DNA of 64,000 nucleotides from a virus: IMG/VR virus record IMGVR_UViG_3300046820_000495, positions 1 through 64,000 of that record. One strand, 5' to 3'. A program made the position numbers and the translations under genes. The notes beneath the pieces are model-generated. The model ran no database searches, had not been told where the DNA came from, and was given only the letters and a program-made list of their open reading frames with translations. Positions 9,120 to 63,996 of the stretch are shown here, in pieces. The first letter of the stretch is position 1. Each line of letters begins with the position of its first letter.

Positions 9120-9752
9120 TCACTCCGGAGGCCTGATTCTTTCAAATCTTTCTATGTAATCACCACATTGTAAACGTAGCATAGCGGCATCGTCTGAGCT
9201 GGCTAGATACAAATGTAGAGGTTGTCCCCATCCATAGATTTTTGGTAGAGTGTCATTTTTAATAATGTTCATTAACAAGCCAGCACAATACCAATCGTCC
9301 GGATCTAAAGCATTCACTGCTGATTTAAAATTATCTACAGCTTTAACTCTAAAGTCGTTGTTGTATTTGATCCGTGCCCTGATAGGAAATTTACCATACC
9401 ATGGCTTGGTTCTAATAACATCATATTCATAGTTGAGCATTAAATCTTTAGCAGATGTGTTGACAGGACTCCATGTTTCGAGTACTCTGTCACCAAAATA
9501 TGCTACTAGCGCATTTAGTTCTTCTTCTGAAGACAAGAACACACTTAAATTGCTTTCGCTTCGCAATCCAACATCTTCAAACATTTTCAAGCACCAAGAC
9601 TTTGCTACATTAATGTTTACACTACGTTGCCTTAGTGTCTCTGTATTGTTAACCCTGCCCCAACCATTTGATCCACGGGCAGGGGTAATTTCAATAATAG
9701 CTTTGTAAGGCCATTTTTTCCAAAACAGCTTTTGAGTATTATGTGTTTTCAT
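9120..9752 (-). CDS. Hypothetical protein
   Basis: 210-aa ORF overlapping the end of clpA. Confidence 0.65.
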   Translation of the reverse strand: MKTHNTQKLFWKKWPYKAIIEITPARGSNGWGRVNNTETLRQRSVNINVAKSWCLKMFEDVGLRSESNLSVFLSSEEELNALVAYFGDRVLETWSPVNTSAKDLMLNYEYDVIRTKPWYGKFPIRARIKYNNDFRVKAVDNFKSAVNALDPDDWYCAGLLMNIIKNDTLPKIYGWGQPLHLYLASSDDAAMLRLQCGDYIERFERIRPPE

Positions 9753-11964
9753 CAGTAATTAAAAGTTCTGTTCCATCACTAGTGACGCGGTGTTTAGTAA
9801 TGCCATCGCGGATAATACGTTTAGCAATTGGTAGTCTAATTTGTTCGTTGATCAGGCGCTTCATTGGACGAGCACCCATTGTTTCGCTATAGCCGTGCTC
9901 TGCCAAGTAGTCCAGTGCTTTGTCATCATAGCTAACAGATTGATTCTGTCCATTAAGTTGTTCACGAATTTGATTCATAAACTTGTCAGCAATACGTCGA
10001 ATAACATCACGAGACAAGCGGTTAAACTTAACAGTAGCATCTAAACGATTGCGGAACTCTGGGCTAAAGAAACGCTTGACTGCTTCATCGCTGGCATCAT
10101 TGTTTAATCCGCCACCAAAGCCAATTACATTCTTTTCACTATCCACAGCACCCAAGTTAGACGTTAAGATAACAAACGCATTACGGGCACTTGCTTGCTT
10201 ATTGTCAGAACCTGTAACAATACCATTGTCCATTAAGCCAAGCAAGACTTGGATAACATCGGGGTGTGCTTTTTCAATTTCGTCAAATAGCAACACACAG
10301 TTTGGTACACGCTCTAGTTCGTTAATCAACTTACCTGAACCAGCTTTGCCCTCACCATAACCAACGTAACCTGGAGGGCTACCAATTAGGGAAGCAATCT
10401 TATGTGGCTCTTTGTATTCGCTCATATCAAAGCGAATCATTTCCATACCCAAGCCTTCGGCAAGTTGGTTAGCAAGTTCTGTTTTACCAGTACCAGTTGG
10501 ACCAACAAACAAAAAGTTAGCCATCGGGCGGTTTACTTCTTTTAAGCCTGACTTGGCAATATACACCATGTTCATTAGACGTTCAATTGCATTGTCTTGT
10601 CCAAATACGTTTGTACGCATACGGCTTTCAAGATCAGTAACTGCAACGTTTTTTTGCTCGCCTAACTGTTCAATTGGCACCCGAGTCAAATCGCTAATCT
10701 CTTGGCGAATATGATCCTTGGTAACGTCAGTGCCTGCAGGCGAGTTTGTAACACGCAAACGGGCCATGGCCGCATCAAGAATGTCAATTGCTTTGTCGGG
10801 CAATTTCTTGTCCAGCATGTACTTCATAGACAAGTCAATGGCCAAGTCGATTGATTCTTCACCAACTGCCAAGTTGTGATACTTGGCATACACAGGTATA
10901 ACTTGACGCAACATCTGCTTGGTTTCTTCAACTGAGGGCTCATTGATGTCAATCTTGGTAAAGCGGCGCAGTAAGGCACGATCTTTTTCAAAGTTCTCAC
11001 GGAACTCTTCATAAGTTGTGCTACCAATACAACGTAGCTTGCCTTTTTCTAAACTTGGCTTTAACAAGTTAGCAACGTCCATACTACCTTGTCCGCCTGC
11101 ACCTGCGCCCATGATCATGTGAATCTCGTCAATAAACAAGATAGCATCATCGCGTTCTTCTAGTGCTTCTAGAACATGTTGCATACGCTCTTCAAAGTCA
11201 CCGCGGTAACGTGTACCAGCAAGTAATTTGCCCATATCTAAACTGTAAACAGTTTTCTTCTTTAACACTTCTGGTACTTCATTGCGAATAATAGCTACAG
11301 CAAGTCCTTCTACAATAGCTGTTTTACCTACACCAGGTTCACCAACCATGATAGCATTGTTTTTCTTTTTACGAGTAAGTGTCTGTGCAAGTCGGAACAC
11401 TTCTTTCTCACGACCAATCAAGGGATCGATCAGTTGCTTTTCAGCACTCTTATTCAAGTTAGTAGTATACTTGCTGAGTACTTTTTCACTATCACGTTTC
11501 TTAGCGACCTTGCTTTCCTTGCTACGGCCATCTTTTAGTTTACCAACATAGGTAATGATAGCATCTTTGGTAACACCATTCTTGGCAAGGAAGAAGTTGG
11601 CATGGCTATTCTTTTCACTTGCAATACTGATCAGCAAGTCTAGTGGCTCCATGTGTCCACGGCCAGTAAAGATAGCCTGTGTGTATGCACGATTAAAGCA
11701 TCGTTCTAAGGTAGCTGTTTTGCGTGGTTTGGTTACACCCTCAACACGGATGTCTTCTTGGTCCCGTAACCACATATCAATTTCATCACGCAGGCCCATT
11801 ACATCTACTTGTAATTCACCAAGGATGTCTTTAATTTCTTCTTCTTCTAGCATGACACGTAGTATGTGCTCTAGTGTAACATACTCATGTTCACGGTTCA
11901 ATGCATCTTGGAATGCACGAGCAATAACTTCATTAATGCGTCCGTTGTTTTCTTCTTGATTCAT
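9739..11964 (-). CDS. clpA: ATP-dependent Clp protease ATP-binding subunit ClpA
   Basis: Clp N domain (HEYVTLEH), two AAA+ modules ([29 protein letters not shown]), IGF loop, no ClpB middle domain; start at 11964 chosen from SD and TAAATA at 11985-11990. Confidence 0.92.
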
Positions 11965-11995
11965 AACTACCTTTTCAATTTGAATATTTATTGTA

Positions 11996-12811
11996 CTACT
12001 TTTCCGCTTGTAGGTCAATGACCGTTTTGTCCTGATCCTCTGGATTTAGCTTAGGAATAGATACTTCCAATGTTATAAAAGCATTTCCCCTGGCACTTGT
12101 TCCCCTGACGTTAAATCCACGATTACGCAACCTAAGTTGTGATCCTGGTTGACTACCAGCAGGCACAGCAATTTGTATCACTGAGCCATCAATGTCTGTA
12201 ATTTCAACATCAGAGCCAAACATTGCTTGCCATACACTTATACGCATAGTGGCATGTAAATCGCGATGTACAAGGTTCCAGAATTTATGTGTTTCAACTT
12301 TTATTTTTGCATACAAATCGCCTGGCGGCTGATCCTTTATAAGCTGACCGCCATCTCCTGCAAAGCGTATTTTAATATCTTCTGTGCTTCCGGGCGGAAA
12401 TGTGATTTTCATTTCCTTTTCTGTACCGTCGGGCATGGTAAATGCTACATCTTTAGTAAATCCTGAATGCGCTTCTTCTAGTGTACAAGGTATTGAAATG
12501 TTTATATCTGGATTTTTAATTTCTGGTTCACGCCAGTCATCAAAGTTCCAATTACCGCCACGTTGTGTGCGTCTAATGATGTCATTTAAATCATTAAAGC
12601 CGCCAAATGGGCCACTGCCACGGAAGCCATTGAAGTTAGAAGTGTTGGCTCTACCCGAAGTGATAGCTTCGTATGCTTCTTTAATCTTTTTAAATTCTGC
12701 TTCACTACCACCGCGGTCGGGGTGGTGCTTCATTGCTAGCTTGCGGTAAGCCTGTTTGACTTCATCTGCGGTAGCATTTGATTCTAAGCCTAACGTTTTG
12801 TAATAGTTCAT
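11996..12811 (-). CDS. DnaJ-class co-chaperone (CbpA-like, no Zn finger)
   Basis: J domain with HPD, G/F-rich linker, DnaJ C-terminal domain (PGDLY, G-LRL-G). Confidence 0.9.
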   Translation of the reverse strand: MNYYKTLGLESNATADEVKQAYRKLAMKHHPDRGGSEAEFKKIKEAYEAITSGRANTSNFNGFRGSGPFGGFNDLNDIIRRTQRGGNWNFDDWREPEIKNPDINISIPCTLEEAHSGFTKDVAFTMPDGTEKEMKITFPPGSTEDIKIRFAGDGGQLIKDQPPGDLYAKIKVETHKFWNLVHRDLHATMRISVWQAMFGSDVEITDIDGSVIQIAVPAGSQPGSQLRLRNRGFNVRGTSARGNAFITLEVSIPKLNPEDQDKTVIDLQAEK

Positions 12812-18833: not shown

Positions 18834-19225
18834 TATAGGCTCGTTGGGGTTGGTGTAGATTTTGGAACAACTTGAATACTGCCATCGCTGTATTCAATCT
18901 CCGTAGACGTACCGCTTTCTGTTACAATATCACGAGTACCAACAATAGTAGGCCCTGTAGAACTTGGTGTACCGGTTGGTGCTGTGTTCTTAATTTCAGC
19001 ATCAGCTTTTAAACTAACCGATGATGTTTCATTGTTTTTAAGATTAGCACTTGCTCGTGAAATAACTTGGTTAGGAATCTTAACGTTTCCTCTAGAATCA
19101 ATGATGTCACCTCTGGCATTCATTGAAGCATTTCCAACAGCACGTACATCGCCATTTTTTTCTGCAAAGGCGGTCATGTTGAATTCTTTGCCCCTGTGCG
19201 TTTTGTATCTTGGTGTTACACTCAT
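18833..19225 (-). CDS. Hypothetical protein
   Basis: 130-aa ORF (AVGNASMNARGD). Confidence 0.6.
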   Translation of the reverse strand: MSVTPRYKTHRGKEFNMTAFAEKNGDVRAVGNASMNARGDIIDSRGNVKIPNQVISRASANLKNNETSSVSLKADAEIKNTAPTGTPSSTGPTIVGTRDIVTESGTSTEIEYSDGSIQVVPKSTPTPTSL

Positions 19226-19698
19226 CTAATAAACTCCTCTATTCCTAAGTTATACTTAATCGGATTGATCTGGTGGAGTCCAACCAAGTAAAGTAAAAAC
19301 GAGCTAACTGAGCTACCTCGTCCAACTCCCCAAACAATCTTATGTTCTTCCATTAATTTTACTAAAAATATCATGAACCTTAGCATTGTTTCTAATCCAC
19401 GTTCGCGGAACAATGCCAATTCCTCTGCTACTCTTATAGCTTCTTCTACAGTAGAAACCTTATTAGCAAAGTATATATCTAAGTCCATGGTCTTGTATTC
19501 TTCTGGCATATCCCATTTTGAACTTGCTTCCTCCAATGATTCTGGAAGTTCTTTAACGCTAAAGATAGGATCTTGCCCAAGCTTGTTGCAACCATCAAAG
19601 TACAAACCAAGTATATCTGGCGTAACTGTTAACGGGCCTGCTTTGTCTTGGTAAAGTAACTCTACCAAATCTGATTCTTTTATCATTGTAGCTGGCAT
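19222..19698 (-). CDS. DNA polymerase III alpha (DnaE)-like fragment
   Basis: R-EEL-LF, IVWGVGRGSSVSS-LLY-G-INPIKYNL-F resembles the DnaE GRGS region; only 158 aa. Confidence 0.75.
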   Translation of the reverse strand: MPATMIKESDLVELLYQDKAGPLTVTPDILGLYFDGCNKLGQDPIFSVKELPESLEEASSKWDMPEEYKTMDLDIYFANKVSTVEEAIRVAEELALFRERGLETMLRFMIFLVKLMEEHKIVWGVGRGSSVSSFLLYLVGLHQINPIKYNLGIEEFIR

Positions 19699-19699
19699 G

Positions 19700-19927
19700 T
19701 TAGGCAATGCTGTCGTTGAATTGGTCACCGTCTTTGTTGCTTGCTTCAAAGCTTTGTTTGTATCCAATTTCCCACATGGCGTGTTTAATTGCTTCCATGT
19801 GTGCTAACATTTGATTCATTACTTCATGACTAGCACCGCCTTGGAAAGCGGCGTTGTATTTTTTAGTAATAAATCTTTGACGCTCCATCAGTTGCTCAAA
19901 GTTCATTGCGCTGTAGTTTGGATCCAT
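19700..19927 (-). CDS. Hypothetical protein
   Basis: Helical ORF; start trimmed to ATG at 19927. Confidence 0.5.
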   Translation of the reverse strand: MDPNYSAMNFEQLMERQRFITKKYNAAFQGGASHEVMNQMLAHMEAIKHAMWEIGYKQSFEASNKDGDQFNDSIA

Positions 19928-20265: not shown

Positions 20266-20469
20266 TTATGACCTTATAATAATCTCAATAAGCTCTTCTC
20301 GCTTTTTACGAGTATTAATTGCTATGCCACGCTCTTTTGCATAAACAATCAATTGCTTTTTGGTAAATGTATTTAACTTATCTATGTCGTGCCGGACTTT
20401 TACCACAAGAGGCGGCTTTTCTGTTTCACTTGTGATTTGTTGGTCCAGCCATGATTTAATGTTAGACAT
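20266..20469 (-). CDS. Small protein with Rho-N/HeH-like motif
   Basis: L-FTKKQL-YAKERGI-KKREELI. Confidence 0.5.
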
Positions 20470-20728
20470 GATTCTCCCCAAAAAATAACTTGGCAAATAA
20501 AGCATCTTCTTTGTTTTCAAACAAAAGCCAGGCTTGACTGTCATTGAATCCCCAGCCTGTCCATTCCTTTGTTAGTTCCATTGCTTTTTCTAAGATCTGT
20601 TGTGGAATGCCTTGTATACTTTCCATGCCTGTTTGATCTACAACTGAAACAGCCCAAGCTTGGTCAGGCTTAGACCCTTCCAAGAAGCTGTATGTTTGAT
20701 ACAAATCTTTAACAAAAATAAATTTCAT
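20462..20728 (-). CDS. Hypothetical protein
   Basis: 88-aa ORF. Confidence 0.55.
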   Translation of the reverse strand: MKFIFVKDLYQTYSFLEGSKPDQAWAVSVVDQTGMESIQGIPQQILEKAMELTKEWTGWGFNDSQAWLLFENKEDALFAKLFFGENHV

Positions 20729-21256
20729 TTAGCCTTCATATGTAGCAGAGTTAGCACCATGTTCAAACACTTCTACACTTTTAACTCTTACAGTTGGATT
20801 AATTGGATATCGCATGTCGCCACTTGCAATTAGCTCTGCCATTTTATCAAACGCCATTTTAGCAAACATTTCGCAACCTACACCTGGTACAATGCGTAGA
20901 TCACAAATACCTTGTCGGCGATATGGTTCTACTTGTACACGTTCTGCGTTATCATCATGCTCTGGATTTGAGCTCCAGCCTGACATTAGTTTAAAACGAT
21001 CTAACATTGGATCATCTTCGGCAACAACCAAAGTGTGATCAAACATGTGATCTGCCCATGCTTTGAACTCTTTGAGACCACCAAAATCCATACACCAGTT
21101 CTTGTCATCTAGTGTGTCGCATTCAAAAATTAGTTTGATGCCAATTGAATAACCATGTAGCGTGGAACAGTGGCTGTGTGTGGCTCTCCACTGCCTGAAA
21201 CAGCAACTCAGACCTCTGTCGTTGCCGTATGTTTTTGTTGAATAAAATTTTGCCAT
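20729..21256 (-). CDS. queD: 6-carboxy-tetrahydropterin synthase / PTPS family (QueD)
   Basis: C-LHGYS, MDFGGLK, FDHT, GCE-FA, V-VFEH-NSA T-fold motifs. Confidence 0.85.
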   Translation of the reverse strand: MAKFYSTKTYGNDRGLSCCFRQWRATHSHCSTLHGYSIGIKLIFECDTLDDKNWCMDFGGLKEFKAWADHMFDHTLVVAEDDPMLDRFKLMSGWSSNPEHDDNAERVQVEPYRRQGICDLRIVPGVGCEMFAKMAFDKMAELIASGDMRYPINPTVRVKSVEVFEHGANSATYEG

Positions 21257-21280
21257 TGTTGTTTTTCCTTTGTTAACAAT

Positions 21281-21325
21281 GGCATGCAGAATTTGTATAG
21301 CGGGATGAATGCCGAAGAGACCGCT
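21281..21325 (-). ncRNA. Candidate preQ1-I-like riboswitch (H-type pseudoknot) in queD leader
   Basis: P1 AGCGG/CCGCU, loop UCUCUUCGGCAUUCAUC, A-rich AUACAAA, then AUGCC able to pair with loop GGCAU; TAAATA at 21331-21336 just upstream. Confidence 0.55.
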
Positions 21326-21344
21326 GTTGATATTTATTAAGTGT

Positions 21345-21929
21345 TTAACGTGTCTGTAACTCGTTAATGCCTAATGCTTTGAAAGAACGTTGGACACCAA
21401 CCAGTTGGCTCCAACAGTCCCATAAGGCATGATGCGCGGCACCTTGTGGACGTTGCAGTCCGGGTACTAATGCATACAATGTGCGAGCATCACGTGCCTG
21501 CCAATAACTCCAAGCTACACCACGCTTGAGTTCTCTGCTAAAGTGTTCGAGGATGTTTAAGTCAAAGCCTGTGCCGTTGGCCCAAATGGCATCAACACCG
21601 CCACACCAACGATGGAAGTCTTGTAGTACATTACGTATGTCATGGCGGTCATCTTCTGCAAATGCTTCTCCACGAACTTCTTCGCTTTGCCGGCCCCACC
21701 ATGCTAGTGTGTCATCATCAATGACATGATCGAGGCCTTCAAAGCTTTCAAAACTTACACGACGATAAAACGTATCCATCTTTTCCATTGGATTGTTTGT
21801 ATCTTCTGCCCAGGGATTGAAACGAATAGCACCAATAGTAAGCATTAAACTGTTTGGTTTAGTGCCAAGTGTTTCCAAGTCAACCATGATATGATTGCCT
21901 GGTTTATAAAAGTTCATTTCATTTGCCAT
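21345..21929 (-). CDS. DEDDh 3'-5' exonuclease (Rv2179c-like)
   Basis: MVDLETLG, WANG-FD, RDART, HHALWD. Confidence 0.85.
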   Translation of the reverse strand: MANEMNFYKPGNHIMVDLETLGTKPNSLMLTIGAIRFNPWAEDTNNPMEKMDTFYRRVSFESFEGLDHVIDDDTLAWWGRQSEEVRGEAFAEDDRHDIRNVLQDFHRWCGGVDAIWANGTGFDLNILEHFSRELKRGVAWSYWQARDARTLYALVPGLQRPQGAAHHALWDCWSQLVGVQRSFKALGINELQTR

Positions 21930-43439: not shown

Positions 43440-44098
43440 TAGGTCCAAAAGAACTTGCCCCTTTAACAGATGATCAACTGTTAGGGCTAATAGAATGCTT
43501 TACAAACAATAAGCAAATGCAAAGCTACCCTGGTAGGGCGTTTGCATTAGACTTAGATCCAGCAATGGAAATCGTTAAGCCTATTATAGATAACGAACTT
43601 GGAGAAGGTACATGGGAAAGAGACGGCGGAAACTTCTTCCTTACTAACACAGGGTATCGTGTTCATGCTGATACAGGTAAGCAAGGTCCAGAAAAAGTCT
43701 GGCAGACATTCTTGTTCCCATTGGCAATGACATTCAAAGAAGACACTACACCGCGTCTAGACAAGAATAAGTTTATTGTGCTTAACCAAACGTGGGATGG
43801 TAATGCGGCCTTCTTCTTACGTGGGAGTGATGACGAACCAAACGAATACAACATTGTAGTCAAAGACTATGCGGCAGTTGGCAACATCGAACATCATACT
43901 ATGGATGGATGGTTACTAGAAAACTGCCCTCACTTAAATCCAAGCAACTTCTATGGTTTAACAGTTGACAAGATGTTTACTTGGACTCCAGGAGTACCAA
44001 TTACATTTCCACGTAATCGTTTACATGTAAACACACCTTTCCCAAGGTATGGAATTGCTACCAAGCTTGGCTTGAGTGTGTTTATATCGAGAAAATAA
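43436..44098 (+). CDS. Putative 2OG-Fe(II)-type oxygenase
   Basis: VHAD...W-PG-F-R-LH...K pattern. Confidence 0.55.
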   Translation: MIGPKELAPLTDDQLLGLIECFTNNKQMQSYPGRAFALDLDPAMEIVKPIIDNELGEGTWERDGGNFFLTNTGYRVHADTGKQGPEKVWQTFLFPLAMTFKEDTTPRLDKNKFIVLNQTWDGNAAFFLRGSDDEPNEYNIVVKDYAAVGNIEHHTMDGWLLENCPHLNPSNFYGLTVDKMFTWTPGVPITFPRNRLHVNTPFPRYGIATKLGLSVFISRK

Positions 44099-45069
44099 TG
44101 TCTAAAATAATTGAAATAAAAAGAAATTACGATGTACTGTATGTATATTGGACACTAACGGATTTTTGCAACTTTAGATGTAACTATTGTCCAAGTAGCT
44201 TACATGCCGGAGACTACAAGAATGGTAGAAAGCCAGGCTACCCATCAAATGACGAGATACGAACTTTTCTTGATAAGCTAATAAATGTTCACGCCAAGGA
44301 TAGAGTATTGCTTGTTTCGATTGGTGGGGGTGAACCTACTCTACATCCAATGTATGAAGAAATAGTAGACACAATTTATCCACATGGTATAGTTGAAACC
44401 ATTACAAATGGTTCGCGAGATTTCAAGTGGTGGCAAGGACTCAATCACCTGCCAGATAAACTTACTATTAGCCTACATGCTGAATGGACTAAAATGGATC
44501 GTGTCAATGAGTTAGGCGAATTCCTACTAGACAATAAAGTACAGGTTGCGTACAATATGATGTGCGACCCAGGAAACTGGAATCGTGTACAAGAACTGTA
44601 CAATCAAATGTCTCCGCGACTACGGCCATATGTTGCTGGTAAAATTATAACAGACCATGATGACGGCCCCGACAATGGCAAACCATGGGACTATACCCCC
44701 GAGCAAATGGAATACATTAAAAGCATCTATGCAACAGGTGAACGGCCTGCAAGAAGAAAAATATACGAAGGTGTGAACATTACGCCTGTGATATACTACG
44801 AAGATGGTTCAACGTCAAAGATGGAAAATCCGTTTGAAGTAGTCAATAACTGGCAGCATAGTTTTACAGGATGGGAATGTAGTGCTGGTAGAAACGGAAT
44901 AGCCATTGACTTTGATGGCTATGCTTACGCTGGCAATTGCAGGACACAAAAGCTTGGAAGAATTGATAAGTTTGATTTATTGTCTGAACCAATTATCTGC
45001 CCCAACAAGTGGTGTAAGACAGCCGCAGATATTCAGACCAATAAGCGTTACATAGAACCAGGGTCTTGA
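44098..45069 (+). CDS. Radical SAM protein with C-terminal auxiliary cluster domain
   Basis: CNFRCNYC, GGEPT, TNGS; C-terminal C...C...C-C. Confidence 0.88.
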   Translation: MSKIIEIKRNYDVLYVYWTLTDFCNFRCNYCPSSLHAGDYKNGRKPGYPSNDEIRTFLDKLINVHAKDRVLLVSIGGGEPTLHPMYEEIVDTIYPHGIVETITNGSRDFKWWQGLNHLPDKLTISLHAEWTKMDRVNELGEFLLDNKVQVAYNMMCDPGNWNRVQELYNQMSPRLRPYVAGKIITDHDDGPDNGKPWDYTPEQMEYIKSIYATGERPARRKIYEGVNITPVIYYEDGSTSKMENPFEVVNNWQHSFTGWECSAGRNGIAIDFDGYAYAGNCRTQKLGRIDKFDLLSEPIICPNKWCKTAADIQTNKRYIEPGS

Positions 45070-45677
45070 AATCCTAGCTCATTGAACGCCCATGCACGTT
45101 CTGTGCAGTTATAACACTCGCCACATCGACCTTCTGTTTGTGCTGTACAACTATGAGTAAGTTCTATTAGAGGCCATATATCAAAGACATTGAACAAGTC
45201 TAATGTGTGCCTTTTGTCAACTAGTGCAAAAGGAATAGTTGTCCCGGGCAAATTGACCTTGTCCGGTCTTGCTGGATATTCTCCTGGCATTTGAACAGGA
45301 GGGTGTGCCTGACTACCGTAAAAGCAATGTTCAATGTTGTATGTTGCTCTTGCTTCTCTTTCACCACTACGTCCTTGCTGACTATGATGTAGTGTTGGGT
45401 CTCCTACTTGTATAGGAGCTGGCAATTCTATGCCAAGTATTTCGTTAACTTTATCAACGATTGGCTTGACATAGTTCCAAGCACCATCGGGCCTAGCAAC
45501 TGTAAACGGAATCAACTCGTGGTCGCTGCCTGACATTTTCTTTTCTAGTGCCAAGATATAAAGTAGTATAGCACTATCTGCTCCACCACTAAGCATTACC
45601 CCGATGCGTTTTTTATCTGTTGGCAATGCTATTTCAACTTGCCGCTTGTTGCCTTCTGGCCCAACTATTACAATCAT
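45048..45677 (-). CDS. QueC-like PP-loop ATPase
   Basis: MLSGGADS and C-terminal Zn motif THSC-x7-CGECYNCTER. Confidence 0.7.
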   Translation of the reverse strand: MIVIVGPEGNKRQVEIALPTDKKRIGVMLSGGADSAILLYILALEKKMSGSDHELIPFTVARPDGAWNYVKPIVDKVNEILGIELPAPIQVGDPTLHHSQQGRSGEREARATYNIEHCFYGSQAHPPVQMPGEYPARPDKVNLPGTTIPFALVDKRHTLDLFNVFDIWPLIELTHSCTAQTEGRCGECYNCTERAWAFNELGFQDPGSM

Positions 45678-50825: not shown

Positions 50826-51092
50826 TTAATATAACCGTTTACGCTGACCTTCGCGACTGGGTCTTCGACCGGCAACTTCATCTTCTTCTACTTTTTTGAG
50901 CCAACGTCTACGGGCTTTGTTTTCTTTGACCAAACGCTCAACGCAGGGTTTTACATATTCCATACGTTCACGTACTTCTTCTAACTTGCCACTGTCTTGT
51001 ATCTTATTTTTAAACTTTCTTAGGGCTTTTTCTACATTGCCGTCTTTAACGGAAACGGCGGTGCCCTTAAGTTTCTTTTGGGTTTCTCTCAT
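50826..51092 (-). CDS. rpsU: Ribosomal protein bS21
   Basis: [25 protein letters not shown]. Confidence 0.85.
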
Positions 51093-52312
51093 GCGACTAT
51101 TTCTAAATTTTTGTAAATTGTGACGGGCTTATGGTCTTCCACGGCCTGTTCAGTAATTATAACTTTACTTAATCCTTCACGGGCCAATTCAGGTAGATTA
51201 AACTGTATATCTAACAAAATATGCTCAATAATGCTTCTAAGTCCGCGAGCACCCGTCTTCTTAGTTATGCTCAGGTTTGCAATAGCAATTCGTGCTTCCG
51301 TTGTAAATTCCAACTCAACACCATCCATTGCAAAAACGGCACAATACTCTTTTTCAATGCTGTCTTCTGGTTCAGTTAGGATTCTAACCAGGCTATCTGC
51401 GTCCAGCGTTTCTAGTGCAGAGATAACTGGAATACGTCCCATGAACTCAGGAATCATACCAAACTTGACAAAGTCTTCTGGTTCTACTTCTGCTAACCAA
51501 CGATCAGTACTGATTTCAGCTGTGCCTACTTCGGCACCAAAGCCAATCCGAGTACCGCCGGTCATGCGCTTCTTAACTTGTTCATCTAAGCCAACAAAGG
51601 CACCGCCCAAAATAAACAAGATGTTCTTGGTGTTTACTGTGTTTGCATCTTGCCCTGGATGCTTACGCCCACCATTGACAGGCACACGACACTCAGTGCC
51701 TTCAATTAGTTTGAGCAGGGCCTGTTGTACACCTTCTCCTGACACGTCACGAGTGATACTTGCGCTTTCACTCTTGCGACCTTTCTTATCGATCTCATCA
51801 ATGTAGATGATACCAGTCTCTGCACGTTTGATATCACCATCAGCACTTTGTACCAGTCGGTGTATAACGCTTTCAACGTCATCACCTACATAGCCTGACT
51901 CAGTTAATGTAGTAGCATCAGCAACTGCAAAAGGCACGTTGAGTTTTTCTGCCAGCTTCTTGGCCAACAAAGTTTTACCACTTCCAGTAGGACCAATCAA
52001 TAGCACGTTGCTTTTCTTAATAAGGTCTGCTGTACTTTGCCCCAGACGTTTGTAGTGATTGCGAACAGCAACACTTAGACTACGCTTGGCCAAGTCTTGT
52101 CCAATGACAAATCTATCCAAGTAAGATTTGATTTCACTTGGTGTACTAGACCCAGTAAACGTGGTAGGTGCTTTTTCTTCTGATAGTGCTTCCAGGCACA
52201 AATGAATACACTCGTTGCAGATATATGCTTTGTCTCCAGCAATGAGTGCTGTGACTTCATCTCTGTGTTTATTGCAGAAGCTACACTTTAAATTTTGTAC
52301 TTTATCCACCAA
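51089..52312 (-). CDS. clpX: ATP-dependent Clp protease ATP-binding subunit ClpX
   Basis: C4 Zn finger, [40 protein letters not shown]. Confidence 0.95.
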
Positions 52313-57305: not shown

Positions 57306-57384
57306 TGGTGGGCCGTCTTGGAGTCGAACCAAGCACCAATGGATTATGAGTCCACTGCTCTAACCAAGCATGAGCTAACGGCCC
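57306..57384 (-). tRNA. tRNA with CAU anticodon, probably tRNA-Ile2 (lysidine type), CCA encoded
   Basis: Cloverleaf: GGGCCGT/ACGGCCC acceptor, GCTC/GAGC D stem, GTGGA-CTCATAA-TCCAT, CTTGG-TTCGACT-CCAAG, ACCA; paired G1-C72 excludes initiator. Confidence 0.9.
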
Positions 57385-58273: not shown

Positions 58274-59731
58274 TCAGTGAACGGGTATATTATGTAATGT
58301 TTGGAATCTTACAGCGTCTGCCCAGGAGTTGACCAAGGGTTCGCCTTTGATATTTAGGCTGGTGTTCATTAGGATAGGGCAACCTGTACGACGATTCCAT
58401 TCTTCCAGGATACTACGGAACACAGGATTATCTTGACGTGTTACTGTTTGAACTCTACTGGAATTGTCCACATGGCACACACCCGGCAACATGTCTGGTA
58501 GTCTGCAACGTGCCACAAACTGCATATAAGGACTAGACTTAACAGGCATATCAAAGTATGTGTCTGCAGATTCTGCTAATACAGCAGGCGCAAATGGCCT
58601 AAACTGTTCACGCCGCTTAATAGAGTTCATTCTAGGTTTTGCATCCGACCCTCTAGGATCGCAAAGTAAACTTCGGTTGCCAAGTGCCCTTGGACCAAAC
58701 TCGGCTCTGCCGTTAGCCAATGCCACAACACGGCCTGCTTCAAGGTCATCCACAATTGCATTAACATCTACGTCCCTTTCAATATTTGTGCCCAAGTAAG
58801 GGCCTTCCCACGTTAAATGGCGTTGGGTGTGTGCGGCCACTGCTCCTAAAGCACTTCCAGCATCGCCTGGATTGGGCATAATCCATACTTCTTTAAATAA
58901 ACCGCTACGAGCAATAACGCTGTTGGCTACACAATTAAGCGCAACGCCTCCCATGAATACCAAGTTGTCACTGACAGTATTAGAGCGCATCACTAATATT
59001 GTTTCTAGTAGGTATTCTTCAATTAATTTCTGTACACTAGCGGCAATGTCAAATTTACTAGCAGTGGGATCCTTAGGTTCCCACCATAAGCAACCACGAT
59101 GTAAATTATGACGTAATTTAAAGTCAGGTGGCGCCCATTTAGTAAAGAATGTTTCGCGTAATTCTTCTAAGTATTTGGGTGTGCCGTGTGCGGCCATGCC
59201 CATTAAAATATATTCTTCTTCGTTGGGCTTTAGGCCCAACCACTGTGTCATTGCTGTGTAAAATAATCCCATGCTGTCTGGGTATTTTTTAGCCCAGCGG
59301 CGTGTCATTTGATCTTTACGAGCTTCCCATATGCTTACACTATCCCATTCGCCAATTGCATCTACTACTAATATTGACGCATCTTCAAATGGACTTGTAT
59401 AATATCCTGCTGCCGCATGGCTTTCATGATGCCCTACATAATCAACAGGCAGGGAATTTAATCCTACTAAACGTAATTGATCACGCGGACTTACAATCCA
59501 AGGACGCTGTCCGGAAAATAGTCTGCGTAAATTCTTTTGAAAAGGCTTTTCAAACCAAACAATTTGTGTAGGTTCACCATATTGTCGCATTTCTTTAACC
59601 ATGTCAGCATCTAACATAGTATCATTCTTTACTCTACTGTAGCGTTCACTGTGTGCCGCCCAAACAATTCGATCCCCATCGATCAGTGCCATGCTGGCAT
59701 CGTGGTTCTGCGATGTAATACCTAGTATCAT
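58274..59731 (-). CDS. Carbamoyltransferase (NodU/CmcH/TobZ family)
   Basis: HD-S, ER-SR-K, HH-SHA, DAIGE, MGMA, GGVALN, GDAG, EFGPRALG-RS, RPFAP, NTSLN. Confidence 0.93.
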   Translation of the reverse strand: MILGITSQNHDASMALIDGDRIVWAAHSERYSRVKNDTMLDADMVKEMRQYGEPTQIVWFEKPFQKNLRRLFSGQRPWIVSPRDQLRLVGLNSLPVDYVGHHESHAAAGYYTSPFEDASILVVDAIGEWDSVSIWEARKDQMTRRWAKKYPDSMGLFYTAMTQWLGLKPNEEEYILMGMAAHGTPKYLEELRETFFTKWAPPDFKLRHNLHRGCLWWEPKDPTASKFDIAASVQKLIEEYLLETILVMRSNTVSDNLVFMGGVALNCVANSVIARSGLFKEVWIMPNPGDAGSALGAVAAHTQRHLTWEGPYLGTNIERDVDVNAIVDDLEAGRVVALANGRAEFGPRALGNRSLLCDPRGSDAKPRMNSIKRREQFRPFAPAVLAESADTYFDMPVKSSPYMQFVARCRLPDMLPGVCHVDNSSRVQTVTRQDNPVFRSILEEWNRRTGCPILMNTSLNIKGEPLVNSWADAVRFQTLHNIPVH

Positions 59732-59866: not shown

Positions 59867-61936
59867 TTATTGCCACGTACCAGTATCGTTGTATCTGTGA
59901 GTAAAAGAAAAGTCCCAAGTCTTACGTTCTTCTAATAATGCTATTTCTTCTGAATATTCTTCATTGGTAAACTGGCTTTCTCCACCACTGCCAGGCAATG
60001 CTAGCTTACGAGCACGTCGAGCCGCCACAGAGTCAGCACGACTAAACTCACTGTAGTGCCAAGCATCGTCACGTTGAACAAAATCGTAGTAGAAATCCGC
60101 TATCCAATGTCCATTTGTGTCAATGTCAAACTTGAATACACCTGTAAAGTTACAGCCCATCCTATCACCAAACTCTCTATTACTGAATTCTGGGGTAATA
60201 GTCATGTCTAGTGTATAAGCACCGCGACTGCGCCACATTAGTCGTAGCAATGGCCATATTTCATTTACAAGACTATCAGCAAAATCACTGATTCCAGGCT
60301 TGATAATGTTGTAGTCAAACACTTCGTACTCTACTTCACGTACCACGCTGTTATCAAAGTTTAATTGGCATATATCATTGACACCACTGCGATTGGTAAA
60401 GTCAATATTTTCCTCTGTTACAATATTATTAAGGAATATATTAAATGTAGTCAGGCGAATTAGTCTATGCACCTTGCTGTTAGCCGAGTCCTTGGTAATC
60501 CAATTACCTTCAAAATAGCTTTTAGCAATATTATACTTGTCAGTGTTCTGCGCTAAGATAGTGTCAGGCGGAATAGTAAAACCGTGTCCGGCGCTTACGT
60601 TGGTTAAATTGTTGTTGCGGTTACGCCAAATAAAGGTCATTGACTCATAAAAGTCCTGTGGAGTTTCTGTAGGGAAACCAATAATCCAATTTGAAAACGC
60701 TTCTACCCCTACCTCCTTACCGTGACGCAGATTCTGTTCCATTTCCTCTACAGTGACACCCTTGTCCATGTCGGCCAAGACCCGGGTACTACCCGATTCA
60801 ATTCCGTAGCTTAGGCTAATACAGCCTGATTCCGCCAGGTCTTTGTAGTATTCCAAGTCCATACGTCCGTCACAGCGAGCATAACCTGTCCATGCAATTT
60901 TCATTTCACGGGCAATTACGCCTTTACAGAACGCACGTAGCTCATTTAAGTTCCCATTTACCAAGCTGTCCAAGAACCAAATAACATTGACGCCACGATT
61001 AAAATACAAGTCTGCTACTTCTTCTAAGATGTTACGTGCCATGCGTCCGCGATACTTCCAAAAGTGTGTTTCGCTACAGAATACACATTTAGCTGTACAG
61101 CCGCGGCTTAGTTCTGCGTTAACACCGTTAGGAAATCCATAGTCTAGTGGGTCAAAATAGCTATAATCCGGACTAGGCAGTTGATCTAAGTCTAGTCGCT
61201 GACCATCTGTTTGACGTAACCAGCGTTGCTTACCATCAAACTGGCCTGTTTCTATTTCTTCTAATGCTTCTAGTAGTAGCTGTTCGCCTTCCCCTGTGAT
61301 AATATAATCATATTCAGATTCAGGTTGCCAGTAACTTTGATGACATTGTGGGCCACCTACCATTACTAATATATGCGGATAGCGGCGCTTTAATTCTTTT
61401 ACCATCCACTTGGTAGGTTCTTGATTACAGTAGTAAAGACTAAAGCCCACCACAGTGGGATTCATTTCCCCAATTTTATCTAAATATTGATTTAAAAAAG
61501 GCTCTACGTATTTGTGCAAATATTCGTAATAATGATTGTCCATCCAACGCCATTCGCGTGAACCATCCCAAGGGTTAAAGTCCAAGCCTGGCCAGTTACC
61601 GTGGTCTTTGTGTGCTTTGGCGTTTAAATCAAATGCGTGTGTAGCGTAACCAGCGTCACGAGTAATAGCGGCTAATCGTGCTATGTTGTAAGGAGGAAAG
61701 TTATGTGCCCACTCTGGCAGCAACATAAACACAATGCTGGTAGCTCGTGTAGCAGGTGTTATCGCCACTTGCGTTAAATTACTCTGTGGTTTAGCACGAG
61801 CAAAGGGTTGCAGGGCTTCTAGAACCTTACGGTGTTTGGCATCATAGTCTTCTTCTGTTTTAGCTACAGGCTTGGTTTCTTTTAAGGCGTAAATCTTTTG
61901 CCAGCCGTATACACTATTTTCTTTGGGTTTAGTCAT
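59867..61936 (-). CDS. B12-binding radical SAM enzyme
   Basis: VGFS, GGP, GEGE B12-domain motifs; SRGCTAKCVFC; GIESGS; IGFPTET. Confidence 0.9.
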   Translation of the reverse strand: MTKPKENSVYGWQKIYALKETKPVAKTEEDYDAKHRKVLEALQPFARAKPQSNLTQVAITPATRATSIVFMLLPEWAHNFPPYNIARLAAITRDAGYATHAFDLNAKAHKDHGNWPGLDFNPWDGSREWRWMDNHYYEYLHKYVEPFLNQYLDKIGEMNPTVVGFSLYYCNQEPTKWMVKELKRRYPHILVMVGGPQCHQSYWQPESEYDYIITGEGEQLLLEALEEIETGQFDGKQRWLRQTDGQRLDLDQLPSPDYSYFDPLDYGFPNGVNAELSRGCTAKCVFCSETHFWKYRGRMARNILEEVADLYFNRGVNVIWFLDSLVNGNLNELRAFCKGVIAREMKIAWTGYARCDGRMDLEYYKDLAESGCISLSYGIESGSTRVLADMDKGVTVEEMEQNLRHGKEVGVEAFSNWIIGFPTETPQDFYESMTFIWRNRNNNLTNVSAGHGFTIPPDTILAQNTDKYNIAKSYFEGNWITKDSANSKVHRLIRLTTFNIFLNNIVTEENIDFTNRSGVNDICQLNFDNSVVREVEYEVFDYNIIKPGISDFADSLVNEIWPLLRLMWRSRGAYTLDMTITPEFSNREFGDRMGCNFTGVFKFDIDTNGHWIADFYYDFVQRDDAWHYSEFSRADSVAARRARKLALPGSGGESQFTNEEYSEEIALLEERKTWDFSFTHRYNDTGTWQ

Positions 61937-63092
61937 CTTGCCATTCTGCTAAAAAATCAGGCCATAATTCATTAAATGAATACTTTTTATCATTTAAGTA
62001 TTTTACTTCTGTCGCGTGTGTCCAGTCAGTGAATTCTAGTTTCTTTATTAACCATTCATCACCTGTGCGACCAATGGTTGGGATAAGCTGGCTTCTAATG
62101 TTTTCTAGTGCTGACATATCATAGCCGCTTGAGCTGTATTTGGCTATACATAGATCCAACTCTGCTAAAGCTTTGCGCTTAAAGTTGTCTGGCAATTTGA
62201 ATACGTTTAAGCTACGAATGTTTTGTATAGCGCACCAGTATACTTCATTGAAATAACCTTCTCCGATAACGAAGTCATAGTACTCGCATAAGTTAAATGC
62301 TGAGTATGTACAGTATAAGGGATGTGCGTTAATAGTTTTGACACCTTGTGCATTAAGATATCGCAAGTTAGACACAAAGGTTGTCCATTCTGCACCGTGA
62401 CGTACATATTCAAATCTCTTGTCCACTGTGTCAAAGCTGATGCCCCACTGTGCGTTTGGGTTGGCTATCAACTTGGGTGCTATTGTGTTATTGGGCAGGT
62501 CAATGCTTAGATTGCTTAGTATGTAATAGTTCTTTGTAGGCAGTAAATCAATTAGCCGATGATTTTGCTTTTGTAGCAAAGGCTCGCCGCCTAGTAGATT
62601 AATTGTTTCAATGCTGTCAACAGAGTTGATATTTTCAGCTATTAGCGTAAACAAGCTGTCTTCTGCTTCGGCCTTGTTGGCATTGATCTTAATACCTTTG
62701 AGTACACTCCATTTACTGCTGAAATATTCATAGCAGTAATTGCAGGCCAGATTACACAAGTTGCTCCAGCGTAGATCCAGCTTTTGAAGTTCAAATGTTT
62801 CTTTTGTTGCTGATTCAAACTCTTCAAATTTTTGAACACTATTGGTATCAACTCGTTCACTTCTGGCCCCCATTGCTTCTAGCTTTTGGCATTGGGCACA
62901 TTGTGGATGCCAGCGTTCTTCTACAATGGCCTGACGTATGCCTTGTGCTGTAGGACCTTGTAGTATTTCTTGTATGCTTTGCTTGTTGATATCGCCTATG
63001 TCCATTTCAGCACTACAGCAGGTTTTAACCCCGCCGTCTGCGCCTAAGAAAATAGTATTAAATGGGTAAGCGCAAAAGGTTTCTTTATTCAT
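61929..63092 (-). CDS. Radical SAM protein with N-terminal twitch/SPASM-like domain
   Basis: C-PF, G-V-CC, C-C then NLCNLACNYC, SS-W, GGEPL. Confidence 0.88.
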   Translation of the reverse strand: MNKETFCAYPFNTIFLGADGGVKTCCSAEMDIGDINKQSIQEILQGPTAQGIRQAIVEERWHPQCAQCQKLEAMGARSERVDTNSVQKFEEFESATKETFELQKLDLRWSNLCNLACNYCYEYFSSKWSVLKGIKINANKAEAEDSLFTLIAENINSVDSIETINLLGGEPLLQKQNHRLIDLLPTKNYYILSNLSIDLPNNTIAPKLIANPNAQWGISFDTVDKRFEYVRHGAEWTTFVSNLRYLNAQGVKTINAHPLYCTYSAFNLCEYYDFVIGEGYFNEVYWCAIQNIRSLNVFKLPDNFKRKALAELDLCIAKYSSSGYDMSALENIRSQLIPTIGRTGDEWLIKKLEFTDWTHATEVKYLNDKKYSFNELWPDFLAEWQDD

Positions 63093-63996
63093 TGTTTAAT
63101 AATTTATTCATTAATGCATCAGCAAGTTGCTCGTGGTATTCCACGTGTGCATGATAAAATCCATGAACTTGTGAATCGTTTCGCCAGTCAATGAGTTTGC
63201 TCAAGCACATGTCATGATCAACAATGCTTCTTAACTTGTGAGTATTGGTTGCCATACACATAAAACGTGGATTCAGCTTTTTATCCTGGACAAAACTGGC
63301 ATAGTCATCCATGGTGCAATGTAGATACTGTACTAATAATCTGCCGCCAAGTTCCTGACTCAGCAGGTCCAGATAGCGCAAAGAAGCATAGTAGTTAAAA
63401 AATAAAAAGTATTCGTCCCCAATATGTTCAACAAATTCATTGTGGAAACGCTCGCTAGGCCAGTATTTAGGATGACCAATGATTGGGGTAGCAGGCCATG
63501 GCCATCCAAATCGTTCTTTTTTGTCAAAGTACATCCAGCGTTCCATGCTAGTTGCGCCAACTAGTATTAGATCATATTCAGTTAGTACACCTGAGGACAA
63601 ATCTTGTTCAATCATGTAAATCATTCCTTGCATACCGCTGCCAGGTATGCCACGATTTAAAATAGGAACATCAAGTCGTTTGGCAAGTTGTCCGGCCCAA
63701 CTGAGTTTGGACTGAGTATCTAATACTGTTTTATCGCCCAAGAATGGATAATCAGTGTAAAAGTCATTGGCGCCAGTGGCTGAATATTTTCGTTTTATCT
63801 TATCAACTTCTCCACGTGACGCGGGCGTTGGCCAAAACAAATGATCAGCCAATTCACTGCCTGCTGTGTGACTGCATCCGTACGCTACAACTCTATTAAA
63901 TTTAATAGTTTGACCGTTCCGAGTGATAGACTTTAACGGAAGCATTTCCCAGTCTGAATGAAGTATTTCAATAACCTCAGGTCGCAATTGATACAA
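63085..63996 (-). CDS. SGNH/GDSL-like protein (start uncertain at window edge)
   Basis: YGCSHTAG block I, W-LA-L, N-G-PG-G, C-terminal H. Confidence 0.6.
   Translation of the reverse strand: MYQLRPEVIEILHSDWEMLPLKSITRNGQTIKFNRVVAYGCSHTAGSELADHLFWPTPASRGEVDKIKRKYSATGANDFYTDYPFLGDKTVLDTQSKLSWAGQLAKRLDVPILNRGIPGSGMQGMIYMIEQDLSSGVLTEYDLILVGATSMERWMYFDKKERFGWPWPATPIIGHPKYWPSERFHNEFVEHIGDEYFLFFNYYASLRYLDLLSQELGGRLLVQYLHCTMDDYASFVQDKKLNPRFMCMATNTHKLRSIVDHDMCLSKLIDWRNDSQVHGFYHAHVEYHEQLADALMNKLLNNE

Follow-up and report, generated by a model that had tools for sequence, protein, structure and literature searches.

The RNA elements closest to the one analyzed here are the preQ1 riboswitches, and all known preQ1 riboswitches are OFF switches (PMC11625349). 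In preQ1-I, the specificity cytosine is located directly 5' of the 3' strand of helix P1 and is preceded by U in type 1, and by A in types 2 and 3 (PMC11625349). THF-I and THF-II (the folE motif) respond to a pterin whose face resembles that of guanine, and regulate GTP cyclohydrolase I-fed genes (PMC6800512). Phage riboswitches are rare (PMC9004378).

Here, we analyzed the leader of a PTPS/QueD-family gene in a 64,000-nt stretch of viral DNA (IMG/VR record IMGVR_UViG_3300046820_000495, positions 1 to 64,000; hereafter, the window), for which a preQ1-I-like riboswitch exerting feedback control had been proposed from the letters of the window (the original prediction). We know of no riboswitch for phage 7-deazaguanine genes, and in all H-type pseudoknot riboswitches known to us, the ligand stabilizes the knot. 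The add adenine riboswitch is a translational ON switch, in which the bound aptamer captures a strand that is otherwise paired with the initiation region. No description of a queD-associated phage pseudoknot was found in the accessible full-text literature, including large structured-RNA catalogues (subscription journals were outside the scope of this search), and the element is probably new to the literature.

Results

Architecture of the leader

The original prediction named a TAAATA box, a 5-bp P1, a P2 formed between the loop and the tail, an A-rich strand, a Shine-Dalgarno sequence and the queD ATG, and we found every one of these parts on the minus strand of the window, in the place where it had been put. 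The TAAATA box (21331-21336), a putative promoter, lies 5 nt upstream of P1, whose 5' strand AGCGG (21321-21325) pairs with CCGCU (21299-21303) to form 5 bp. The 17-nt P1 loop (21304-21320) contains L1 (21314-21320), the 5' strand of P2, GGCAU (21309-21313), and L2, UCAUC (21304-21308), the final C of which occupies the position of the preQ1-I specificity cytosine. It is followed, after the 3' strand of P1, by the 13-nt L3 (21286-21298), consisting of an A-rich part and UCUGC (21286-21290), and by the 3' strand of P2, AUGCC (21281-21285), which pairs with the loop strand. The A's of L3 are predicted to dock in the minor groove of P1, as they do in preQ1-I (PMC11625349).

A feature absent from the original prediction is a 10-bp hairpin in the minimum free energy (MFE) fold (z = -2.1), in which positions 21275-21284 pair with positions 21251-21260, i.e., with a segment that includes the queD start codon (21254-21256); the Shine-Dalgarno-like AAGGA (21266-21270) is in the loop of this hairpin. 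Both arms of this sequestering hairpin, which is likewise on the minus strand, are also recovered by covariation and by RNAalifold, and the 5' arm overlaps the 3' strand of P2 by 4 nt. The switching sequence has the 3' strand of P2 as its 5' part, and the same alignment columns pair with the start-codon region.

The gene that is the presumed target of regulation (20729-21256, minus strand) encodes a 175-aa protein of the PTPS/QueD family (Pfam PTPS, 1.4e-15; phrog_2389 QueD-like, 4e-35). The match of this protein to TIGR03367 QueD (35 bits) is under the cut-off of that model, and the match to PDB 7v0f (CPH4 synthase) is weak. The other border of the leader gap is a gene for an Rv2179c-like 3'-5' exoribonuclease (21345-21929; Pfam, 8e-34). 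Directly downstream of queD, there is an 88-aa ORF with no match, followed by a 92-aa ORF (20266-20544) with weak matches to endonuclease VII-like PHROGs (1e-6). An intrinsic terminator at P1 was considered and rejected: the terminator scan found none, and no U-run follows P1. Elsewhere, the window encodes a ClpA/ClpB-like AAA+ protein (759 aa; 9739-12018), a ClpX-like AAA+ protein (407 aa; 51089-52312), one tRNA (57309-57384, minus strand; Rfam tRNA, 58.9 bits), and a 181-aa ORF (19222-19767) whose sole match is to 70 residues of the DNA polymerase III alpha NTPase domain (3e-10), and which may be a split or fragmentary polymerase gene.

Comparative evidence for the pseudoknot

A single sequence proves little because 4.7% of the shuffles of the 89-nt leader contain some H-type pseudoknot with 5 + 5 Watson-Crick pairs. 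A search of viral contigs with back-translated QueD yielded 374 relatives, and the best 80 of these 374 (78-95% identical) were fetched. All 80 loci carry the element just ahead of queD (42-71 bits); the upstream neighbor gene and the promoter are entirely different among these loci, whereas the element is common to all of them. Among pattern matches from viral contigs, 115 of 120 have a perfect P1.

In an alignment of 48 distinct aptamers from relatives (A1), pairing reaches 99.6% in P1 and 86% in P2, and double changes occur at three of the five P1 pairs and at three P2 pairs. None of 500 shuffles attained the covariation score of A1, although the shuffles keep no account of kinship and many of the leaders are closely related, and the pairing dropped from 92% to 32-52% when the 3' partner was shifted by 1-3 columns. 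A covariance model (R1) was built with P1 alone, i.e., P2 was not encoded, and aligned 101 further instances found with a degenerate DNA pattern; in the 95 distinct sequences that these instances represent, double changes are present at six of the seven P2 pairs. These comparative data are decisive, and the pseudoknot reading is therefore confirmed: by comparison of sequences, P1 and P2 form a conserved, covarying H-type pseudoknot in approximately 200 related leaders from viral contigs. The check that had been suggested along with the original prediction, i.e., conservation and covariation of both helices across related queD leaders, thus came out in its favor (48 + 95 distinct sequences).

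Approximately 15 positions outside the helices never vary in A1, namely, the C-U of loop positions 2-3, the C that ends the loop, three A's at every other position after P1, and UCUGC. These positions cluster around the P1/P2 junction, and such invariant unpaired bases in L1, L2 and L3 are as expected of a ligand pocket. The C before the 3' strand of P1 is invariant in 48/48 aptamers, and the preceding base is mostly U, with a minority of A or C. L1 is variable in length, and its first base is A, U or C; a starting U, which had been read as a feature of the loop, is present in the window but is not conserved. Similarly, UUCUGC had been taken for a spacer, and UCUGC proved to be invariant in all sequences. 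An extension of P2 by two invariant pairs beside UCUGC is possible, and no covariation can be read there because these bases never vary.

The competing helix

The expression platform was surveyed in 156 distinct leaders. A contiguous helix of 6-11 bp is present in 150 of these leaders, and the remaining six have only 4-5 bp. The 5' arm of the helix is within the 13 nt after UCUGC, and the helix targets the start-codon region in 107 leaders and the Shine-Dalgarno sequence in the other 49; at least nine different arm sequences are found. In 92% of the leaders, 2-6 nt of the 5' arm also belong to the 3' strand of P2; in the Shine-Dalgarno-pairing class, the overlap is often just 2-3 nt, and the P2 register assigned there is uncertain. 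In an alignment of 94 leaders of the start-codon class (A3), columns 46-51 pair with the loop as P2, with double changes at four pairs, and the same columns pair with the start region, where the core pairs are 95-100% paired, with double changes at two. RNAalifold, which is blind to pseudoknots, predicts P1 and a 7-bp sequestering helix unaided. The comparative data establish P2 and the sequestering helix as mutually exclusive states of one switching sequence.

The sequestering helix differs between phages in target (start codon or Shine-Dalgarno), length and distance, a variability characteristic of expression platforms rather than aptamers. The leaders combine a conserved 5' structure, a consistent gene association and variable platforms, which is the general pattern by which riboswitches would be recognized from comparative data. 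When the 3' bases of P2 were kept unpaired, the computed probability of an unpaired AUG increased from 0.05 to 0.46, and once P2 was engaged, the computed fold contained no other occluding structure. The ribosome-binding site is located 15-45 nt downstream of the 3' strand of P2 and, in no variant, inside P2. Given that P2 excludes the sequestering helix, a ligand-stabilized knot should turn translation ON; thus, activation is predicted, instead of the feedback repression that had been proposed. The idea that the 5' strand of P2 copies the start region (1.35 mismatches vs. 1.55 in permuted data) was set aside as an argument.

Similarity to preQ1-I

A check with the Rfam preQ1 models gave no match at the leader, even at E<=10; Rfam searches at the gathering threshold, and at E<=10 on 201 nt, found nothing relevant there, and neither RF00522 nor another relevant family was detected in eight variant loci, even at E<=10. 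Across the whole 75-kb record, RF00522 (curated gathering score, 39 bits) is not found at the leader, and its best matches elsewhere have 10.8 and 9.9 bits. A cmscan at E<=10 for preQ1-II, preQ1-III, THF-I and THF-II found no match in the leader and the eight variant loci, and curated small ribozymes and other pseudoknot riboswitches were excluded because Rfam searches at the gathering threshold and at E<=10 were empty.

In a reciprocal test, four genuine preQ1-I aptamers (35-53 bits) in two Bacillota genomes were searched with R1. The model matches three of the four, in the correct place and on the correct strand, but weakly (6.7-7.8 bits, E 0.16-0.44), and the match spans P1, the loop end, the 3' strand of P1 and the first A-rich bases. 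R1 gave 16 matches in 23 kb, and the chance of three such coincidences is, by a rough estimate, 1 in 1000; therefore, the similarity to preQ1-I is real but is limited to the core.

Promoters, regulated genes and distribution

Among distinct upstream regions, 45 have a sigma70-like -35/-10 pair whose end is 6-10 nt ahead of P1, and 41 have a TAAATA-type box, as in the window, whose end is 4-16 nt ahead of P1. Since these promoter-like boxes are just ahead of P1, the RNA would usually begin at the element. A third recurrent box, ATAAGTA, is found approximately 9-12 nt before P1 where both other boxes are absent (L100, L121, L142, L154, L160, L166, L185 and others) and may be another phage promoter type.

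The first downstream gene belongs to the PTPS/QueD family in 190 of 197 instances; these genes comprise at least four subfamilies, one canonical QueD, and one 306-aa PTPS-like protein. In the exceptions, the first gene encodes a cupin, one of two methyltransferase-like proteins or a radical SAM protein, and queD is then in the same operon (in the cupin and methyltransferase-like cases, as the next gene), i.e., the element is always ahead of an operon that contains a PTPS/QueD-family gene. Downstream of queD, 29 loci have a QueE-like gene, and upstream of the element, 22 loci have a phosphoribosyltransferase gene. No consistently adjacent protein gene was found around the element among the loci of the relatives.

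Nearly all instances of the element belong to a group of uncultured large phages (up to about 360 kb). The window, where no second copy was found, has one copy, as does each of five larger relatives, among them a 364-kb record with a completeness rating of 100%. L013/L017 have an additional copy ahead of a radical SAM gene, upstream of a second copy and queD; in L096 (positions 2-50), a degenerate second copy (24 bits) with P1 mismatches and no UCUGC is located approximately 1 kb upstream of the intact copy. Among the cultured phages in the collection, the element was not found and there was no DNA match, and the closest QueD homologues in cultured phages (Acinetobacter phage HD01 and Burkholderia phage BCSR5) lack the leader. 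Bacterial and archaeal species genomes contain 110 pattern matches, only about five of which have full P1 and P2; these bacterial-genome instances are all on short MAG contigs resembling phage fragments.

Pathway and candidate ligand

The original prediction assumed a 7-deazaguanine/pterin pathway. FolE is encoded in all five larger relatives (G001-G005; records of L044, L064, L019, L003 and L074), but no TGT/DpdA homologue was found in these five relatives, including the 100%- and 91%-complete genomes, and their QueC matches are weak and partial. With FolE present, TGT/DpdA absent and QueC not clear, the pathway is therefore less clear than had been assumed, and the gene content hints at a DpdA-independent deazapurine or pterin route in these phages. 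The element-bearing phages (G001-G005; L013:776-4382) encode a QueD-like protein, often with a QueE-like radical SAM protein downstream and a phosphoribosyltransferase upstream. In the window, a radical SAM gene (323 aa, plus strand) adjoins a 209-aa frame (together, 44098-45236), in which just the C-terminal 55 residues match QueC (22 bits). The 75-kb record has seven radical SAM domain matches, six of them clustered at 60.6-69.5 kb (window 59867-63996 onward), and a carbamoyltransferase is encoded at 58274-59731 of the window.

The invariant C points to a ligand whose Watson-Crick face resembles that of guanine, which 7-deazaguanines (preQ1, preQ0, CDG), guanine and pterins would fit equally, and our best guess for the putative ligand is a 7-deazaguanine or a pterin. 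Considered one at a time, a 7-deazaguanine is a tentative candidate, a pterin would be a rather unlikely one, as would some other ligand or none, and another purine is unlikelier still.

Discussion

A proposed ON switch

We propose that the transcript starts a few bases before P1, and that P1, the loop and the tail would fold into an H-type pseudoknot with a preQ1-I-like core of P1, L2 and L3. Without P2, the switching sequence would pair with the queD start codon (with the Shine-Dalgarno sequence in other phages), and initiation would be blocked. A small ligand with a guanine-like face (preQ1, preQ0, CDG or a pterin, e.g., the QueD substrate) would stabilize the knot, which would hold the switching sequence in P2 and leave the start site free for synthesis of QueD. 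We infer that a small molecule of this kind is bound, and that it stabilizes the knot rather than the hairpin. Based on the comparative data, the element is very likely a ligand-sensing riboswitch, and it is probably, with less assurance, a translational ON riboswitch with aptamer and expression platform ahead of queD. As a still more tentative proposal, it could represent a phage-only class, derived from or convergent with preQ1-I, that turns the first committed deazapurine/pterin enzyme ON upon binding of a 7-deazaguanine or pterin. The ON logic would fit substrate induction by 7,8-dihydroneopterin triphosphate; alternatively, it would fit a switch that detects preQ1/preQ0 from the host and thereby the ability of the host to complete the pathway. 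It should be noted that ON control of the first committed enzyme of a branch would be unusual, if the ligand is the end product.

Two covarying, exclusive structures are also possible without a metabolite, and protein-bound translational operators are used by phages. In a ligand-free translational operator, the choice between the conformers might depend on a protein of the phage or host, on temperature, or on the kinetics of co-transcriptional folding; for example, a timing device would let just freshly made RNA be translated. We consider such an operator unlikely, however, given the approximately 15 invariant unpaired bases grouped at the P1/P2 junction, the resemblance of the element to the core of a known metabolite aptamer, the strict link to one enzyme family while the flanking genes and promoters differ, and the lack of a consistently adjacent protein gene.

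The classical preQ1-I-type feedback of the original prediction, in which the knot, folded with bound preQ1 or preQ0, would repress queD, draws on the core common with preQ1-I, on an enzyme that is on the route to preQ0, and on end-product repression being the usual logic. Conversely, the ribosome-binding site always falls outside P2, 15-30 nt further downstream, the 3' strand of P2 competes, in every class, with the helix masking the start codon or Shine-Dalgarno sequence, engagement of P2 leaves no other occluding structure and increases accessibility, and the site has no RF00522 score; we regard this feedback as improbable. Finally, a ligand that stabilizes the hairpin conformer (P1 and the sequestering helix, with the conserved linker), such that P2 is the ligand-free state of an OFF switch with an unprecedented pocket, is highly improbable: both conformers covary and the sequence alone cannot tell the bound one, but the sequestering helix changes target, length and distance as platforms do and aptamers do not, and the invariant bases flank P2, as in preQ1-I.

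If the ON riboswitch that we favor is real, it would be the first activating member of a preQ1-like family, with a possible use in sensing whether the host supplies missing pathway steps or substrate. Compact, with hundreds of natural variants and a clear switching model, the element could extend a much-studied family of model aptamers by an activating class of altered specificity, and could yield a natural ON switch of approximately 80 nt for synthetic biology. It also points to a regulated, possibly DpdA-independent, deazapurine/pterin metabolism in uncultured jumbo phages, and the identity of the ligand would reveal what the divergent phage QueD-like enzymes make.

Comparison with known riboswitches

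The add riboswitch, which provides a precedent for the proposed logic, is a purine three-way-junction aptamer and has no sequence or fold relation to the element. THF-I and THF-II differ from the element in their hairpin or three-way junction folds, their OFF logic and their presence in bacteria. PreQ1-II and preQ1-III are pseudoknotted aptamers, as the element would be, for the same pathway, but they are larger HLout-type folds with extra hairpins, and are OFF switches. In preQ1-III (PMC11625349), as in the element, the expression platform is apart from the pocket.

The element shares with preQ1-I, especially with type 1, the H-type pseudoknot in which the loop pairs with the 3' tail, the 5-bp P1 with a G-C pair next to the pocket, the invariant C before the 3' strand of P1, mostly preceded by U (the type 1 signature), and the A-rich L3 that starts right after P1; the loop end of the element is seen in a genuine type 1 preQ1-I aptamer matched by R1. 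An apparent link to the 7-deazaguanine pathway and predicted translational control are also common to both. The differences are in size, i.e., approximately 45 nt from P1 to the 3' end of P2 compared to approximately 34 nt in preQ1-I, in a longer L1, and in a longer, canonical P2 of 4-7 bp. In the 13-nt L3 of the element, the invariant UCUGC is interposed after the A-rich start with its three invariant A's, whereas in preQ1-I, L3 is followed by P2 at once. In preQ1-I, the 5' strand of P1 is followed by a conserved U (UU in types 1 and 3), whereas the first L1 base of the element is not conserved. Furthermore, the 3' strand of P2 in preQ1-I shares bases with the Shine-Dalgarno sequence or with a terminator (OFF), whereas in the element it is an anti-sequestor (predicted ON), and the element, unlike preQ1-I, is restricted to phages. 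Thus, what holds of the designation "preQ1-I-like riboswitch" is the similarity of the P1/L2/L3 core, and what does not hold is membership in RF00522 and the repressing logic; the accompanying description as a variant, perhaps with altered specificity, is fair. Given this similarity limited to the core, the structural differences and the inverted logic, the element is therefore best classified, on comparative grounds, as a preQ1-I-like variant or a sister class of preQ1-I, and not as a member of RF00522.
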